Assembly: GCA_965203055.1 (NCBI GenBank)
Contig: OZ241863.1
Coordinates: forward strand, 1,984,001-2,048,000
DNA from: Spirochaetia bacterium
GTDB lineage: Bacteria > Spirochaetota > Spirochaetia > SZUA-6 > Bin103
DNA length: 64,000 nt
Direction of reading: 5' to 3'
The notes under the pieces were generated by a model that saw only the letters and a program-made list of their open reading frames with translations, was not told the origin of the DNA and searched no databases. The position numbers and the translations under genes are program-made. Below, piece after piece: positions 11,651 through 18,065 of this stretch. Within the stretch, counting starts at the first letter, position 1, and each line of letters starts with the position of its first letter.

Positions 11651-11732
11651 CCGGCGGGCCGGGCGACCGGGCGCATTTCCAAAATGCAGGTAAGCGTCAG
11701 GCCGCTTGGCGGCCAAGCCCAAGTCTCAGTGA

Positions 11733-13097
11733 TCACCGGTCTACCGGCGCCTGACGATCCTCGCCGGGGCGCCCGCATCCGGCGCCGGCGTGGCGGTAGC
11801 GATGATGGGCGGCGCACAGCAGGCGCAGATTGTTCGGCTCGGCGCCGCCGCCGCAGGCATACGGCACCACGTGATCGATCTGCAGCAGGTGTTGGGAGCC
11901 GCAGCGGCGCCCGCTGGTGCGGTCCACGTAGCGGCAGCGGCCCCGGTCGCGCCGCCACACCTCGCGCTTGACCGCCGCCGGGATGGCGCGGCCGGTCGCG
12001 CCGCCTGCCTTCGCTGCCGAAGTTTCGGTCCGCGCCGGCGGCGCAGCCCGCGCCGCGCCCGCCGGCGCAGCCTGACGGCCGGGGCGCCGCGTCTTCGGCG
12101 CCGAAGTGGTGTCGCCCGCCGGTTTCACTGCCGGTTTCACCGCCGAAGTGTCCGGGCGGCGGTTCGCCTGCAGCGGCGAAGCGGCTTGGTCTCCCGGCTG
12201 CGCCGGCGCCTGAGCCGATACCTTCGCCGCCGAAGGAGCGGCGCTGTTCGAGCCGGCCTCCTGCTTCGCTGCCGAAGCGGCGCCGCGAGTCGAGGCCGCC
12301 CGCGTCTTCGCCGCCGAAGTTTGCTCGGCGCCTTTGGCCGGCGCGCCGCGCCGCCCGCGCGGCGGCCGGGCCGGATCGTGGCGGTCGAGCCCTTCCCGCA
12401 CCAGCCGCCCCATGAGCTGCCCCATCGTCAGGTGCGGATCGACGTGGGACAGGAGGCCCTTGAGCCGCTCCAAACCGCGCCGGCACTCATCGTCGATCAC
12501 CGCCTTGAGTTCCCAGCGCCCGCCGCCCAGGGGCCGCACCCGATCCGCCGGCGCCGCCAGCTCCGGGTCCACCTCGGCCAGCAACTGCATCACCTCCCGG
12601 CTGCTCTTGCCGGACGCCTGCTCCACCAGCTCCCGCCGCGCCTCCGGGTCCAGCACCGGCGGTGGCGCCGCGCCGTCCTGCGACTGAGCGGCGGTCCCGA
12701 ACCCGGCCCCGCCCGGCGCACTACGCGCCGCCCGTTCCTTCTTGCGCTCCTGCCGGTCGAAGGCGTTCTGCAACTGCGCGGCCGCGTTCAGCGTTATCGT
12801 GCCATTCTGCAGGCGCTCGCGCACGCCCTCGACGTCCGCGCAGAGCCGCATCGCCTTGATGCGCCGCCACGCCGCGGCGTCGCTGTAACCCAACTCGCGC
12901 ACCGCGTAATCGAACAGGCTCGAGAACCCGCGGCGCAGGTACAGACGGCGCTTCTGGATCTCGCGCAGGTGGTCGATGACGACGACTTCGAGATGGTGTT
13001 CGATGCCGGAAAGTTCCTTGGTCCGCTCCAGCAAGCGGTCGTCTGAGAGGGCGGATACGGTAGTGGTGACGGCCTCGTCGGAAGCATGTTTGTGCAT
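11733..13097 (-). CDS. HNH endonuclease with N-terminal DUF222/13E12-like helical region
   Basis: C-terminal RAIPAAVKREVWRRDRGRC...CGSQHLLQIDHVVP...GG...NNLRLLCAAHH; N-terminal LYLRRGFSSLFDYAVRELGYS. Confidence 0.85.
   Translation of the reverse strand: MHKHASDEAVTTTVSALSDDRLLERTKELSGIEHHLEVVVIDHLREIQKRRLYLRRGFSSLFDYAVRELGYSDAAAWRRIKAMRLCADVEGVRERLQNGTITLNAAAQLQNAFDRQERKKERAARSAPGGAGFGTAAQSQDGAAPPPVLDPEARRELVEQASGKSSREVMQLLAEVDPELAAPADRVRPLGGGRWELKAVIDDECRRGLERLKGLLSHVDPHLTMGQLMGRLVREGLDRHDPARPPRGRRGAPAKGAEQTSAAKTRAASTRGAASAAKQEAGSNSAAPSAAKVSAQAPAQPGDQAASPLQANRRPDTSAVKPAVKPAGDTTSAPKTRRPGRQAAPAGAARAAPPARTETSAAKAGGATGRAIPAAVKREVWRRDRGRCRYVDRTSGRRCGSQHLLQIDHVVPYACGGGAEPNNLRLLCAAHHRYRHAGAGCGRPGEDRQAPVDR
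12009..12319. repeat. Intragenic array of seven 14-bp units, consensus CTTCG-N4-CGAAG (palindromic), mostly 42-nt period
   Basis: Units start at 12009, 12093, 12135 (degenerate), 12168 (degenerate), 12222, 12264, 12306; encode (T/A/P)SAAK-like peptides. Confidence 0.8.
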
Positions 13098-13103
13098 GAT
13101 ATA

Positions 13104-13132
13104 AGTATAATCATGGAAACTACTTGAGTCAA
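13104..13132 (-). promoter_or_regulatory. Near-consensus sigma70 promoter TTGACT-17-TATACT of the HNH gene (leaderless); -35 overlapped by palindrome TACTTGAGTCAAGTA
   Basis: -35 at 13127-13132, -10 at 13104-13109, ATG 6 nt downstream at 13097; palindrome at 13121-13135. Confidence 0.75.
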
Positions 13133-13261
13133 GTAATTCGGCCCGAATATGTCACCTGCTGGCGTGACTTGGCGGCGCATTTCCAAGCGGTTGGACGTTC
13201 CGTCAGATGCTACTGCCGAGACTGTCGCCGGCGTCGAGCGCATTTCCTCTATACTCGGCGC

Positions 13262-14768: not shown

Positions 14769-17700
14769 GTGGCTCGTCAGGCCGAGCGACAGACCGGCAC
14801 GGTTCCGCGCGCCGGCATGCTCGCGGAGGTGCGCAACCGGAGCGGCGTGGTGACCGCGGTCGAGCCGTTCGACGGCCATGAGGGGCGGCTGCACTTGGTG
14901 CACGTCGAGTACAAGGACAGCCGCGCGCCGGCCGCCGAGCGCCTGTTATGGGAGCTGGAGCAGCCCGGCGGCTCGCTGCTCGAACCGAATGCGCTGCCCG
15001 ACGCTAGCAGCGGCGACGCCATGGACCCGGCCGATTTCGACGCGCTCCTGCGCGCGGCGCGCTGGACGGCGCTCACTCCGTATCTCGACTTCGACGGCCG
15101 GGGGGCGGCGCGCCGCGAACCGCTGGCCAGCCCCTTCCACGGCGCGGTGCGGCCGGAGGATTACCAGCTCGTGCCATTGCTGAAGGCGCTCCGCATGCCC
15201 CGCGTCAGCCTGCTGATCGCCGACGACGTGGGCCTCGGCAAGACGATCGAGGCGGGCCTGATCCTTACCGAGCTGCTGCTCCGGCGCCGCATCCGGCGCG
15301 TGCTGGTGCTGGCCCCGGCGGCGCTGCGCCGACAGTGGCGCGACGAGCTGTGGGAGAAGTTCTCGCTCCGCTTCGAGGTGGTCGACCGCCACCGTACCGA
15401 GCTGGCGCGCCGCCGCCTCGGCATGGACGCCAATCCGTGGCGCTCGTTCGACCGCATCGTCGCCTCCTTCCACTACCTGCGCCAACCGGACGTGCGCGAG
15501 CAGTTTCTGGCCGCCTGCCGCGCCCCGCAGGGATCGCCGCATCTGCCGTGGGACCTGCTGATCGTCGACGAATGCCACCACCTCATGCCCGCCCCGTTCG
15601 GCGAGGACAGCGAGCTGTGCCGCACCATGCGCCTGGTGGCGCCGCGCTTCGAGCACCGGCTGTTCCTGTCCGCCACGCCGCACAACGGCCACACGCGGTC
15701 GTTCACCGGCCTGCTGGAGATGCTCGATCCGGTGCGCTTCACCCGCACCGCGGAGCTGACCCCGGCGCTGCGCGCGCGCGTCGACGACGTCGTCATTCGG
15801 CGTCTGAAGCGCGACGTCAACGCCGCCGCCGCCGCGCCCCGGTTCTGCCGCCGCCTCCCGCCGGCGGCCCTGCCGCTCGCCTTCGACCCGCGTGAGGCGG
15901 CGCTGGCCGCGGCCTTCGACGCCCTGCGCGCCGCGGTGCGCCGGCTGGTGGCCCCGCATCCCGGCCGCGCGTCCGGGCCGCGCGTGCGGGCCGGCACCTT
16001 CGCGGTCGAGATCCTGGGCAAGCGGCTGCTGTCGTGTCCCACGGCGTTCGCCGAGTCGTGGCGCCGCACCCGGCAGGGGTTGGCGGAGCCGGCCGCGGCC
16101 GGCGAACGCGAGCTGCAGGCCGCGGCCCGCGCGCTGCGCCAGGAGACCGGCGACGACCGCGAGACGCAGGCGCGCGCCGCGACCGCCGCTACCGTCGCCG
16201 GCGCCTGGCTGAAGAACTTCGGCGCCGCGCTGGCGGCCGAGATCGGCGCCATCGACGCGGCGCTGGCCGGCCTCGGCTTCGACCTCGACGGCGCGCCGCC
16301 GGTGGAGCGGACGCCGGCCGCGGACGCCCGCTTTACAGCCCTGGTCGGGTTGATCGAGCGGCTGCTGCGCGCCGGCGACCGGTTTCGCGGCGACGAACGG
16401 CTGATCGTCTTCACCGAGTACAAGACCACGCTCGACTACCTCGCGCGGCGCCTGCGGCAGCGCTATGCCGAGGAGCGGATCCTGACCCTGTTCGGGGCGG
16501 GCGGCCCGGACGGCATGAACGATCTCGACCGCGAGCAGGTCAAGGCGTCCTTCAACGATCCGGCGGCGCCGGTACGCGTGCTGGTGGCGACCGACGCGGC
16601 GTCCGAGGGCCTCAACCTGCACCGCACCGCCCGCTACGTGCTGCACTACGACTGTCCCTGGAACCCGTCCCGGCTGGAGCAGCGCAACGGCCGCCTCGAC
16701 CGCTACGGCCAGGCGCGCGACGTGACGGTGCATCACTTCGTCAGCGACACCGACCATGACCTGCGGTTCCTCGCGCACGTGGTCCGCAAGGCCGCCGAGA
16801 TCCGCGAGGACCTCGGCGCGGTCAACGAAGTGTTCGACCGCGCCGTGCACCGCCGCCTGATCCTGGGCGACGACGCGGCCGCGGTGCAGGCCGACCTGGA
16901 CCGGGGGCTGGCCGGCGCGCGCGAACGCGCCTCCTTCCCGGCCGACCCCGGCGCGGCGCCGGACAACGACGCGGTGCAGGCCGCGCTGCTCGACGCGCTG
17001 GCGGCGGAGCTCGATCTCGATGCGCCGGCGCTGGGCGCAGCCCTCGGCACCGCCATGGCGGCGACGGCCGGCGGCAAGCGCCAGCTCCGCCCGGTGGCCG
17101 AGGAACCCGGTTGCCATACCGTGGCGGACCCCGGCCTCGCCGGCTGGCGCGACGTGATCGACCAGGCGGTGCGCCGCCCTGCGCCCGGCGGCGAACCGGG
17201 ACCGATGCCGAAGCTCGCCTTCAGCACCGCGCCGTTCATCGAACGGCTGGGGGCGCTGAGCGTGTTCCGGCCGCGCCGCGACGCCGTGCTCATGCACCTG
17301 TCTCATCCGCTGATCCAGCGGGCGCTGGCGGTGCTGGCGCGGCGCCGCTACCCCGGCGAGCACCAAGTCTCGCGCTGGACCGTGCGCCGCGGCGCGGTGC
17401 CGGCGACGGCCGACGCCCTGCTCCTGCTGAGCATCGAGGAGCTGGCCGTAAACGAGCTGCGCGAAACCTTCCATCGCTGGACCCGCACGGTGGTGTTTCC
17501 GGTGCAGGACGGGGAACTGGGGCTGCCGCTCGCCCATCAGCCGCCGCAGGCACTGCGCGCCGCGCCGGCCGCGGCGTTGACGCGCGCCGAACGGCGCCGC
17601 GCCGGCGAGCTCCTGGAAGAGGTCGACCGCGACCTGAGAGACTGGCTGCGCCGGTACCGCGGCGAGCTGAGCGCGGCGCTGCGCGAGCAGCTCGCCGCCG

Positions 17701-18065
17701 ACGGCGCCGGCGCGCGCCGCCGGGAGGATGACCGCTACCGCCAACGCCAGGGCGAGTTGTCGGGGCTGATCGAGCGCTCGACGGTCGCGCGCCTCACGCG
17801 CGAGATCGACGACCTGAACGTGCGCGCCGCGCAGGGTGAGTTGTTCGACCAGGAGGGGCGCCGGGCCGCGCTGGCGCAGTCGATCGAGGAAAAGCGGGAG
17901 GAGATCGCCCGCCGCCGCCGGCACTACGAGGAGCTGCGCGCGCAGTTGCAGCAGGAACGCGCCCGCCTCCTCGAGCACCTCCTGCCCAAGCGCTTCGCCA
18001 TGGCCGGCTCCGCGCGCGTATTTCCCGTGGCGGCGGAGATTCGCCTCCCGGAGCGCCGAGGATGA
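14769..18065 (+). CDS. drmD: SNF2-family helicase, DISARM DrmD-like
   Basis: LLIADDVGLGKT, DECHH, LSATPHNG, TDAASEGLNL, PWNPSRLEQRNGRLDRYGQ; YQLVPLLKALRMPRV typical of DrmD; ATGA-coupled to a methyltransferase gene. Confidence 0.82.
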   Translation: MARQAERQTGTVPRAGMLAEVRNRSGVVTAVEPFDGHEGRLHLVHVEYKDSRAPAAERLLWELEQPGGSLLEPNALPDASSGDAMDPADFDALLRAARWTALTPYLDFDGRGAARREPLASPFHGAVRPEDYQLVPLLKALRMPRVSLLIADDVGLGKTIEAGLILTELLLRRRIRRVLVLAPAALRRQWRDELWEKFSLRFEVVDRHRTELARRRLGMDANPWRSFDRIVASFHYLRQPDVREQFLAACRAPQGSPHLPWDLLIVDECHHLMPAPFGEDSELCRTMRLVAPRFEHRLFLSATPHNGHTRSFTGLLEMLDPVRFTRTAELTPALRARVDDVVIRRLKRDVNAAAAAPRFCRRLPPAALPLAFDPREAALAAAFDALRAAVRRLVAPHPGRASGPRVRAGTFAVEILGKRLLSCPTAFAESWRRTRQGLAEPAAAGERELQAAARALRQETGDDRETQARAATAATVAGAWLKNFGAALAAEIGAIDAALAGLGFDLDGAPPVERTPAADARFTALVGLIERLLRAGDRFRGDERLIVFTEYKTTLDYLARRLRQRYAEERILTLFGAGGPDGMNDLDREQVKASFNDPAAPVRVLVATDAASEGLNLHRTARYVLHYDCPWNPSRLEQRNGRLDRYGQARDVTVHHFVSDTDHDLRFLAHVVRKAAEIREDLGAVNEVFDRAVHRRLILGDDAAAVQADLDRGLAGARERASFPADPGAAPDNDAVQAALLDALAAELDLDAPALGAALGTAMAATAGGKRQLRPVAEEPGCHTVADPGLAGWRDVIDQAVRRPAPGGEPGPMPKLAFSTAPFIERLGALSVFRPRRDAVLMHLSHPLIQRALAVLARRRYPGEHQVSRWTVRRGAVPATADALLLLSIEELAVNELRETFHRWTRTVVFPVQDGELGLPLAHQPPQALRAAPAAALTRAERRRAGELLEEVDRDLRDWLRRYRGELSAALREQLAADGAGARRREDDRYRQRQGELSGLIERSTVARLTREIDDLNVRAAQGELFDQEGRRAALAQSIEEKREEIARRRRHYEELRAQLQQERARLLEHLLPKRFAMAGSARVFPVAAEIRLPERRG

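Follow-up and report, generated by a model that had tools for sequence, protein, structure and literature searches.

Our analysis of the HNH nuclease gene in this 64-kb window (the whole stretch of Spirochaetia DNA under study) indicates that the short palindromic units inside the gene very probably belong to a coding repeat linker and not to a CRISPR-like array. Each unit is held as nucleic acid and not as the peptide that it encodes, a conclusion in which the codon, per-position and allele evidence gives us good confidence. The units are the constant points of a tandem repeat which stays in frame and builds a disordered linker from the helical region to the HNH domain, and the array grows and shrinks by in-frame duplication and deletion of modules of 10–28 codons.

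The gene is read from the minus strand and consists of the following parts:

11733..13097, minus strand: ORF P0001 (454 aa), with a helical N-terminal region, a disordered linker and a C-terminal HNH nuclease domain
11994..12374, minus strand: linker coding sequence (residues 242–368), an in-frame repeat region with disorder in AlphaFold2
11787..11990, minus strand: HNH nuclease domain (residues 370–437), from Pfam and the AlphaFold2 model

The earlier note had correctly read this gene as an HNH gene: residues 398–436 match Pfam HNH (PF01844) with 26.5 bits against a gathering cut-off of 21.4, and PF01844 is matched by all 14 aligned family members. In the AlphaFold2 model, helices span residues 18–239, residues 242–368 lack secondary structure (pLDDT 30–38), and residues 370–437 reach a pLDDT of ∼80. 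D408, H409, C388 and C399 are invariant in the 14 sequences, and N423, C428, H431, H432 and H436 are at least 90% conserved; we take these residues (D-H ... N ... H, with flanking Cys) to have catalytic or metal-binding roles. Structural comparison with VIA-align 2 matched the HNH fold to McrA (Z 6.2), the GVE2 HNH (Z 5.9) and the IscB HNH (Z 5.7). A PDB search with the family profile gave matches confined to the HNH domain, the best being to a group II intron maturase (En domain, E 1.2e-4).

For the N-terminal region, Foldseek returned no match at E ≤ 0.001, and the helical matches obtained with VIA-align (KorB/ParB, TraM and MCM, Z 4.4–5.3) lie below the level that is meaningful for helical models. 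The alignment of residues ∼59–180 to KorB/ParB DNA-binding domains (Z 4.4–4.7) falls under the same limit and is a weak lead. Pfam DUF222 (PF02720) matched this region in 0 of 14 members at E ≤ 1; an Atlas feature search pointed to a neighbouring cluster in which 12% of the members carry DUF222, which is a lead only. An overlapping gene in the linker was considered and rejected: the +2 sense frame (N-F-G-A-E-G, with good GC3) is open in just 10 of 28 in-frame linkers, the +1 frame in 4 and the antisense frames in 6–12.

The palindromic units fall within the predicted disordered linker, residues 242–368, in agreement with their proposed location between the helical and HNH domains:

12306..12319, minus strand: unit 1, ACT TCG GCG GCG AAG = TSAAK, perfect 5+5 arms
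12264..12277, minus strand: unit 2, GCT TCG GCA GCG AAG = ASAAK, perfect arms in the window copy
12222..12235, minus strand: unit 3, CCT TCG GCG GCG AAG = PSAAK, perfect arms
12168..12181, minus strand: half unit, GCT TCG CCG CTG CAG = ASPLQ, 5′ arm only; forward strand CTGCA-GCGG-CGAAG
12135..12148, minus strand: degenerate unit, ACT TCG GCG GTG AAA = TSAVK, two arm mismatches; forward strand TTTCA-CCGC-CGAAG
12093..12106, minus strand: ACT TCG GCG CCG AAG = TSAPK, perfect 14-nt palindrome
12009..12022, minus strand: last unit, ACT TCG GCA GCG AAG = TSAAK, perfect arms
12222..12319, no strand: 42-nt tandem repeat (TRF, 2.3 copies, 77% matches), spanning units 1–3 and their spacers

Exact matches to CTTCG-N4-CGAAG occur five times in the window, at 12009, 12093, 12222, 12264 and 12306, all of them inside the interval 12009..12319, against a shuffle expectation of 0.10 (0 of 100 shuffles reach five). 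With the two degenerate units, each of which has two arm mismatches from the consensus, this confirms the seven units that had been claimed and their periods of 84, 42, 33, 54, 42 and 42 nt. The description of five of them as fully palindromic holds for the 5+5 arms; over the whole 14 nt only the unit at 12093, with its loop GCGC, is a perfect palindrome, and the other exact units are symmetric in their arms only. The symmetry does not extend beyond 5+5 either, as the preceding A is found in 110 of 147 units and the matching following T in just 24. The spacers had been called unrelated, which is not true of all of them, given the 42-nt period over 12222–12319. On the coding strand NCT-TCG is present in 7/7 units as claimed (ACT four times, GCT twice, CCT once), and NCT is indeed rare: in 2058 high-GC3 ORFs of the genome, ACT, GCT and CCT account for 4.0%, 4.0% and 4.3%, respectively, of the codons for their amino acids. 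At unit 2, GCC-TCG or GCC-CCG is found in most paralogues, which breaks one or two pairs. The segment that hosts the half unit is found in 4 of 35 paralogues, and the place of the degenerate unit is taken by a perfect TSAAK form in other paralogues.

From its ends and copies, the HNH gene is apparently carried by a non-autonomous, IS-derived transposon that occupies ∼60 loci of the genome. In the window copy, the following features were recognised:

11669..13240, minus strand: 1.57-kb repeat unit, an HNH-gene transposon copy without left terminal repeat, delimited by blastn against its own genome
13104..13132, minus strand: promoter-like site (TTGACT, 17 nt, TATACT), kept in paralogues; 1 found against 0.0 in shuffles
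13174..13186, minus strand: 13-nt core of the terminal repeat, TTGGAAATGCGCC, as a direct copy inside the element
11670..11682, minus strand: right terminal repeat core TTGGAAATGCGCC, the element end; a 1.52-kb IS at other places of the genome has the same end
11700..11714, minus strand: 3′ hairpin GGCCGC-CAA-GCGGCC, conserved, after the stop codon and before the right end, as seen in the sequence itself

The hairpin at 11700..11714 is not called by the terminator scan because it has no T run. Comparison of the window with its own genome by blastn detects 60 loci, 35 of them near full length, with 77–92% nucleotide identity, and similarity among the copies stops at 11669 and 13240. The terminal inverted repeat of the HNH unit is ∼24 bp long, consists of GGGCGCAYTTCCAA followed by TGTAGGTA-like letters, and is shared with the IS of 1.52 kb, which encodes a UPF0236 (PF06782) protein. 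Both the left and the right ends of the HNH element match those of the IS, which is represented by seven inverted word pairs spaced 1.24–1.51 kb apart. Presumably, this partner IS with its UPF0236 protein belongs to the ISLre2 family. One table in PMC7648426 pairs a UPF0236 protein with an ‘ISLre2 transposase’ hit. By inspection, the flanks of one IS copy contain a direct repeat of ∼10 bp.

The left end is kept in only 10 of the 35 near-full copies; the window copy has the right end only, and no inverted left word was found upstream of it. Downstream, the 35 copies have no sequence similarity in common, and upstream any similarity is confined to the left part of the element itself. A homing endonuclease gene at one conserved target was rejected, as the flanks of the copies lack a common sequence, and upstream DNA of up to 2 kb common to a few copies proved to be an unrelated repeat-lipoprotein gene family outside the element. 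Seventeen ORFs in the genome are open all the way between the conserved N-terminal motif and the conserved C-terminus; one of these has lost a large internal part, and another is frame-scrambled in its linker.

Genome-wide, the palindromic motif has 254 matches, of which 215 lie inside HNH loci (reversed-pattern control, 5). The 39 matches outside these loci have unrelated loops and frames, and a general genomic use of the motif was therefore rejected. Two genomes of another family contain 43 and 54 general motif matches, just 1–5 of which have HNH-type loops. At E ≤ 1e-10, with a stricter first look, the HNH family was detected in 20 of the 23 genomes that belong to the same bacterial family (2–74 matches each, 20–74 in many of them) and in 0 of 17 that belong to the order's other families. 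The 21 positive genomes together account for about 740 matches.

The nucleotide-level constraint that the earlier note had suspected is strongly supported by the homologues, which do not vary freely at synonymous positions of the unit, the outcome that the note had named as a refutation. In homologues that are just 50–60% identical, the rare T-ending codon is kept in 40 of 43 canonical units ([TAP]S[AP][AP]K, xCT) and TCG in 43 of 43; elsewhere in these linkers, a wobble T is present in 140/1176 (11.9%) and TCG in 84 of the 211 Ser codons. In the conserved domains of these genes, synonymous sites are saturated: identical amino acids share their codon in just 57–70% of columns, and only 7 of 45 wobble Ts are kept. 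All these loci were chosen as the top-scoring matches of 21 genomes and are not a random sample. Among the 35 paralogues, the low-diversity island is a block of 15 nt and not every third base, and the amino-acid changes (T/P/A, A/P) sit on letters outside the arms. Departures from the consensus affect 1.6–1.7% of arm sites versus 6.0–6.4% of spacer sites, whether the copies are intact or broken. When only this genome is considered, the synonymous signal is modest (0.039 vs 0.091, permutation p = 0.02).

These data bear on the possibility that only a peptide motif, T-S-A-A/P-K, is selected, for example as a DNA-contacting or modified sequence, and that descent, codon-pair bias or gene conversion has kept its codons fixed. 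In line with such an explanation, the unit is always in the same frame, and the loop codons nearly always encode Ala or Pro, the third letter of the loop being a purine in all but 1 of 147 units, which indicates that some peptide-level or centre-of-site constraint acts as well. Moreover, ACT rises from 4% to 15% genome-wide when the next codon is TCG (GCT to 11% and CCT to 10% in the same 2058 ORFs); this general codon-pair bias was rejected as the cause since, though present, it is far too weak. However, selection on the peptide alone does not fit the wobble T of the distant units, the saturation of the domains, or a first residue that varies among T, P and A with the last two letters of its codon constant. 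It also fits poorly with a variant allele, described below, that swaps both Ser and Lys, and with the presence of only four unit-type peptides, none of them palindromic, in ∼1.02 million other codons of the genome. On the codon, domain and allele data, the peptide-only explanation thus appears largely refuted and is improbable.

The 62 linkers contain 224 perfect 5+4+5 palindromes compared with 71.7 ± 8.0 in shuffles; 147 of these are of the CTTCG and 17 of the CTCCG type, and 60 of the 62 linkers have at least one palindrome of either type. The second allele, CTCCG-N4-CGGAG, is a palindrome-preserving double change of CTTCG-N4-CGAAG. This allele encodes T-P-T-A/P-E (TSAAK to TPTAE), i.e., it replaces Ser by Pro and Lys by Glu and retains both xCT and the symmetry, and a quick tree indicates at least two origins. 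The unit consensus over both alleles is (A/C/G)-CTYCG-N4-CGRAG. Mixed sites (20 CTCCG..CGAAG and 12 CTTCG..CGGAG) are as common as the 17 double variants CTCCG..CGGAG, and the third arm position may therefore be merely degenerate (Y/R) and not co-varying; the odds ratio of ∼10 for the arm-to-arm association of alleles is inflated by shared ancestry. Six linkers carry both alleles together, which is awkward for a strictly clade-specific protein–site pair. The cheapest compensatory routes, at pair 2 (synonymous plus Lys to Arg) and at pair 5 (synonymous plus Ala to Gly), were not seen in the 62 linkers.

Because the ten palindromic letters appear to be kept as DNA or RNA and not as protein, they are probably a recognition site. 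We tentatively propose, at somewhat less than an even chance, that the ten arm letters form a symmetric site for a dimeric factor, with two symmetric half-sites read in a sequence-specific manner on double-stranded DNA or possibly on a folded transcript. A point against a site is that unit 2 is imperfect in most paralogues. Alternatively, the units might be RNA or single-stranded DNA hairpins with a 5-bp stem and a 4-nt loop that act by their shape, in ribosome pausing, mRNA stability or as processing marks. The recurrent palindrome-preserving T-A to C-G change agrees with hairpins, as do a second clade rich in CTTCG..CGGAG, which in the sense RNA is a U.G wobble and thus a classic intermediate, and the folding of some units in the minimum-energy structure of the linker RNA (z −2.49, 2 of 100 shuffles as good). 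Yet the commonest variant, CTCCG..CGAAG, is a C.A mismatch in the sense RNA and persists in a 13-member clade, whereas G.U-type variants make up just 17 of 85 single-change neighbours, and compensatory changes at the other pairs are unseen despite the two cheap routes. In addition, stems are invariant and loops variable, which is the reverse of most protein-read hairpins, and a 5-bp stem is weak in a transcript of ∼72% GC whose shuffles already reach −198 kcal/mol. We consider hairpins acting by shape rather unlikely; invariant arms, a variable centre and the unused compensatory routes would favour a site over a generic hairpin, a preference we hold only tentatively.

In 16 intact paralogues, diversity at codon positions 1/2/3 is 0.13/0.114/0.105 in the linker versus 0.042/0.026/0.094 in the domains; the spacers between units drift neutrally at all three codon positions. 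They are homologous across ∼35 paralogues, among which they align with in-frame indels. Unit spacings are all multiples of 3 save in frameshifted copies, and the frame through the array is kept in the 17 read-through copies, counting the internally deleted and the scrambled one, and in homologues of other genomes. With its modules in multiples of 3 nt, their variable number and the predicted disorder, the region is an in-frame tandem-repeat disordered linker. The spacers are in part diverged tandem copies of each other, an outcome that the earlier note had named as counting against its reading: besides the 42-nt repeat of the window, periods of 42, 81 or 84 nt are seen in ∼10 of 62 linkers, and G007 has an intact 696-codon open frame with an array of 27-aa modules.

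A CRISPR-like mini-array with spacers that are acquired or guide the HNH nuclease, as put forward in the earlier note, is accordingly hard to reconcile with the linker. It would account for short palindromic repeats that alternate with dissimilar sequences at semi-regular spacing, and the HNH domain does resemble those of IscB and Cas9 at the domain level. However, the repeat measures 14–15 nt compared with roughly 23–50 nt for CRISPR direct repeats, the array is translated inside one 454-codon ORF with unit spacings in whole codons, and the spacers are partly tandem-derived. They show no sign of acquisition or of a guide role, the same sequences recurring in ∼35 paralogues. With its failure on repeat length, coding status and spacer behaviour, this explanation is extremely improbable. 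An IscB-type RNA-guided nuclease was rejected separately, as its match to NCBIfam NF040563 reaches 22.1 bits, where the cut-off is 175, and covers the HNH stretch only; Pfam scans of family members found no RuvC family. Slippage or recombination could also be the whole explanation: identical 14–15-nt direct repeats, continually renewed by in-frame duplication, would let the linker expand and contract, and nothing would read the palindrome. The units would in that case be alike because they are young and turn over, or because a linker of variable length is selected for. One large deletion in the paralogues indeed extends between units and another of 30 nt is found in three copies, the tandem periods and the much longer array of G007 point the same way, and linkers range from 109 to 240 aa with 0–6 perfect CTTCG units each. 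But the units are old, because their arms are intact while the inter-unit spacers have become unalignable in most linkers; turnover would homogenise whole modules and not just ten letters, and the palindromic nature of the word, and again of the variant allele, is left unexplained. Slippage without a reader is thus unlikely.

If the units are recognition sites in a coding repeat linker, as we prefer, the likeliest reader would be the element's own protein, although we regard this particular assignment as doubtful. Copies of the element could then sense one another, which might damp expression of the nuclease or direct it to sister copies, and such mutual recognition could lead to copy-number-dependent self-repression or to nuclease-driven gene conversion between copies. 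The switch from CTTCG to CTCCG would in this case mean that the proteins of one clade changed their specificity together with the site. The complete picture, a selfish nuclease gene whose coding sequence contains, co-written with a peptide repeat, the sites that its own product recognises, and whose ∼60 copies recognise one another, is speculative and on balance unlikely; should the element's own nuclease prove to be the reader, transposon copies would recognise each other in a novel way. More generally, the units would represent a natural second code over a protein code, in which ten fixed letters impose rare codons and even a Lys to Glu swap, and which is overlaid on genes that, throughout one bacterial family, have been amplified to dozens of copies in a genome. 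They also caution that ‘disordered linker repeats’ in genes of mobile elements may conceal regulatory DNA or RNA sites.

The gene layout resembles that of the REP13E12 or ‘13E12 repeat’ DUF222-HNH genes of Mycobacterium tuberculosis, which are ∼1.4–1.6 kb long, encode a helical N-terminus and a C-terminal HNH domain and are present in many dispersed copies. To our knowledge, DUF222/HNH-type repeat genes have been without a known mechanism or function for decades, and a conserved cis site inside such a gene would offer a concrete handle on mechanism. ‘REP13E12/HNH endonuclease/DUF222’ is listed as a repeat class in PMC10589994, which cites Gordon et al. 1999. Both families are dispersed multicopy genes of this size and domain order; in contrast to REP13E12, the spirochaete family has no DUF222 match (0/14), shares its terminal inverted repeats with an IS and reaches a far higher copy number. 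The linker of the spirochaete family carries the palindromic units. In the parts of the literature on REP13E12/HNH, DUF222/HNH endonuclease and ISLre2/UPF0236 that we covered, a scope that does not include in-frame palindromic repeats in general, we found no palindromes inside such genes.

With non-autonomous transposons and mobile insertion cassettes, which are moved in trans by an IS transposase, the element has its IS-shared ends of ∼24 bp in common. Unlike in these cassettes, the passenger is a nuclease gene and not a resistance or metabolic gene, and few near-full copies retain the left end (10 of 35, the window copy not among them). CRISPR arrays likewise have short dyad-symmetric repeats between dissimilar sequences and differ in repeat length, coding status and spacers. 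Rickettsia palindromic elements are mobile, 100–150 bp long and inserted in frame in many unrelated protein genes; they too are palindromic DNA translated within proteins, whereas the unit described here has 14 nt and is confined to one gene family (215 of 254 genome matches). KorB operators and ParB parS are palindromic sites for dimeric helix-turn-helix proteins, and dimeric restriction and homing nucleases read interrupted palindromes. The candidate site has the same two invariant inverted 5-bp half-sites around a variable 4-bp centre, several per short stretch; in contrast to KorB and ParB sites, it lies inside a coding sequence and is co-written with a peptide repeat, and the likeness of the protein to these factors is weak at the level of the fold (Z 4.4–4.7).

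The HNH protein (454 aa) is encoded on the minus strand at 11733–13097, and the interval 12009–12319, read on the plus strand, is antisense to this open reading frame. All five exact matches to CTTCG-N4-CGAAG in the 64-kb window fall into this interval, whereas shuffling the window gives an expectation of 0.10 and none of 100 shuffles contained five, which confirms both the existence and the placement of the palindromic units described in an earlier note. Two units are degenerate:

12135, coding strand −, two arm positions off consensus
12168, coding strand −, two arm positions off consensus

In coding orientation, all seven units are ACT/GCT/CCT-TCG-GCx-xCG-AAG or near variants; they encode TSAAK, ASAAK, PSAAK, ASPLQ, TSAVK, TSAPK, and TSAAK. 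As the earlier note stated, an NCT codon is followed by TCG in every unit (7/7), and its unit periods are correct on the window sequence. The five units it called fully palindromic do have exact CTTCG/CGAAG arms, but the full 14-nt palindrome is found at 12093 only. The spacers are not unrelated either, as units 1–3, spacers included, make up a tandem repeat of 42-nt period (77% matches). Among the paralogues, i.e., the copies of the gene in the window's genome, the fourth loop letter is either G (Ala) or C (Pro) in two of six units (12093–12106 and homologous units; diversity 0.33–0.49). It is the sole highly polymorphic position of a 15-nt island, and a C here creates a perfect 14-nt palindrome.

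When 35 paralogues are aligned, each copy carries the same spacer sequences, which vary through point changes and indels that keep the frame. One large deletion stretches from one unit to another, and a deletion of 30 nt is seen in three copies. In 16 intact copies, diversity at codon positions 1/2/3 is 0.13/0.114/0.105 in the spacers and 0.042/0.026/0.094 in the domains. Since spacer diversity is equal at the three positions, the spacers drift without constraint except for the frame. Of 62 distinct linkers taken from 21 genomes, ∼10 show tandem periods (42, 81 or 84 nt) by TRF. In L090, an HNH copy of another genome (G007:C39:79800–82700), the linker of an intact 696-codon open frame has expanded into a long array of 27-aa modules. 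An xCT-TCG...AAG unit anchors every module, and the array also has an 81-aa higher-order repeat. Judging from these sequences, array growth is in-frame tandem duplication. The CRISPR-like array of the earlier note is therefore rejected: its spacers are shared by the paralogues, neutral apart from keeping the frame, and partly diverged tandem copies of each other.

Constraint at the nucleotide level, which had also been proposed, was confirmed and sharpened. In the canonical [TAP]S[AP][AP]K units of distant homologues that are only 50–60% identical in protein, the first codon ends with T in 40 of 43 cases and serine is encoded by TCG in 43 of 43, compared to a wobble T in 140 of 1176 codons and TCG in 84 of 211 Ser codons in the remainder of the same linkers; free synonymous variation was thus not seen. 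Genome-wide, these T-ending codons make up ∼4% of the codons for their amino acids, and 10–15% before TCG. Where the amino acid is identical in the conserved domains, the codon is also identical in only 57–70% of columns, and wobble T is kept in 7 of 45 cases. The conserved island, 15 consecutive letters minus the fourth loop letter, has the shape of the arms and no every-third-base pattern, and the residue changes (Thr, Pro or Ala for the first codon; Ala or Pro for the loop) fall precisely on letters outside the arms. Divergence from consensus affects 1.6–1.7% of arm sites and 6.0–6.4% of spacer sites; a comparison restricted to the window's genome gives a modest synonymous signal (0.039 vs. 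0.091, p = 0.02). An overlapping reading frame cannot account for this conservation, as the alternative frames are closed for the most part. The constraint very probably acts at the nucleic-acid level.

Perfect 5+4+5 palindromes of any sequence number 224 in the 62 linkers, compared to 71.7 ± 8.0 in shuffles, with CTTCG (147) and CTCCG (17) as the leading arms and the next commonest arm at 8; 60 of the 62 linkers carry at least one palindrome of these two types. In CTCCG-N4-CGGAG, the third pair is changed from T-A to C-G.

Units by left and right arm
CTTCG left, CGAAG right: 147 units
CTCCG left, CGAAG right: 20 units
CTTCG left, CGGAG right: 12 units
CTCCG left, CGGAG right: 17 units

The N-terminal regions (61 rows) were placed in a quick maximum-likelihood tree. 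There, a clade of 13 members (SH-aLRT 100) is made up of the C-G type, which recurs once in a second clade rich in the T..G form, so that at least two origins are needed. As the mixed forms (20 and 12) are as frequent as the double variant (17), the third arm position may simply tolerate Y/R, and the association of the arm alleles is inflated by the relatedness of the copies. In the same frame, CTCCG-N4-CGGAG encodes T-P-T-A/P-E, replacing Ser by Pro and Lys by Glu, yet it retains the xCT codon and the symmetry. This allele argues strongly against a purely peptide constraint, and a role of the units in the peptide only appears very unlikely.

RNA or single-stranded DNA hairpins, the reading of the earlier note, would be in line with a linker RNA fold mildly better than that of shuffles (z = −2.49). 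However, only part of the units form their own hairpins in this fold, G·U-type pairs are not enriched among single-change neighbors (17 of 85), and no other compensatory pairs were seen in the 62 linkers, though two would be cheap to reach: at pair 2 by a synonymous change with Lys to Arg, and at pair 5 by one with Ala to Gly. We consider hairpins unlikely, and slippage modules, to which the tandem growth of the arrays might point, quite improbable. Invariant arms around a variable centre are better explained by a pair of sequence-specific half-sites than by a stem of generic sequence, and together with the lack of other compensatory pairs and an RNA fold only mildly better than that of shuffles they favor a symmetric site. 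Our best guess, held tentatively, is that the units represent a putative recognition site for a dimeric factor. Because the motif is confined to the gene family and the allele tracks the protein clade, the most economical candidate reader would be the element's own protein, a doubtful assignment.

The whole 1.57-kb stretch 11669–13240 is repeated across the window's own genome (4.56 Mb, 68.75% GC) at 60 loci, 35 of them near full length. Seventeen ORFs stay open between the conserved motif near the N-terminus and the conserved C-terminal end, including one with a large internal deletion and one frame-scrambled in the linker. Genome-wide, 215 of 254 CTTCG-N4-CGAAG matches are inside HNH-element loci and the other 39 have unrelated loops; the reversed pattern, as a control, occurs five times. 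Features of the element and of a 1.52-kb IS in the same genome (G000:C1) are:

TTGACT-17-TATACT, promoter-like site conserved in the HNH element
3′ hairpin conserved in the HNH element
11670–11682, 13-nt word TTGGAAATGCGCC, right end of the window copy
13174–13186, second direct copy of TTGGAAATGCGCC, internal, upstream of the promoter, window copy
G000:C1 273724–275244, 1.52-kb IS with inverted end pairs, outside the window
G000:C1 313015, 396960, 859829, 2807102, 3352098, 4373830, six further pairs of this IS

An inverted TTGGAAATGCGCC is located farther upstream in 10 of the 35 near-full copies; the window copy lacks this left-end copy and is thus truncated on the left. The HNH element and the IS share a terminal inverted repeat of ∼24 bp, and the open frame of the IS (∼478 codons; 467 aa from the first Met) matches Pfam UPF0236 (E = 2.3e-10). 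Given these common ends, the IS is the likely source of the transposase moving the HNH element. Overall, the HNH element behaves as a non-autonomous transposon that derives from an IS and carries a nuclease gene.

Within the bacterial family of the window's genome, 20 of 23 genomes contain the HNH family (2–74 matches each). Seventeen genomes representing other families of the order gave no match at E≤1e-10, in a search whose more stringent initial pass can miss weak matches. HNH copies of G011, a genome placed in another genus (L001–L010, L017, L038), reach up to 90–91% protein identity to those of the window's genome, while copies from other genomes of the window's own genus reach only ∼52–59%; this suggests element transfer between lineages or an imprecise genus assignment. 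G027 and G034, from another family of the order, have 43 and 54 CTTCG-N4-CGAAG matches vs. 7–8 for the reversed control, only 1–5 with HNH-type loops, and no HNH relatives were found in them. HNH copies near G000:C1 ∼945000, 2467000, 3069000, 1283000, and 1939000 adjoin repeat-lipoprotein genes with PSGGTTATG-type repeats, and the upstream similarity of up to 2 kb there belongs to that gene family rather than to the HNH element. Two genes from the window copy, a 1098-aa ORF (14769–18065, +) looks like a large SNF2/DEAD-type helicase.

In the 454-aa protein, Pfam recognizes the HNH domain alone (residues 398–436). The AlphaFold2 model, based on an alignment of 14 family members, comprises:

Residues 18–239, helical region
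Residues 242–368, unstructured stretch, pLDDT 30–38
Residues 370–437, HNH domain, confident

Accordingly, the units are predicted to sit in a disordered linker. The closest folds of the HNH domain are those of McrA, phage GVE2, and IscB HNH (Z 5.7–6.2), and its closest sequence match is the En domain of a group II intron maturase. The protein is not an IscB, as it scores 22.1 bits with the NCBIfam IscB model (cut-off 175), and this over the HNH stretch only. Residues ∼59–180 resemble KorB/ParB DNA-binding domains at Z 4.4–4.7, too weak to count. Within the sources covered by a narrow literature search, no description of codon-frozen palindromes inside such HNH genes was found. The DUF222 profile matched 0 of 14 family members, and we therefore do not assign the family to the mycobacterial REP13E12/DUF222-HNH repeat genes, which it resembles in gene architecture and multicopy state.
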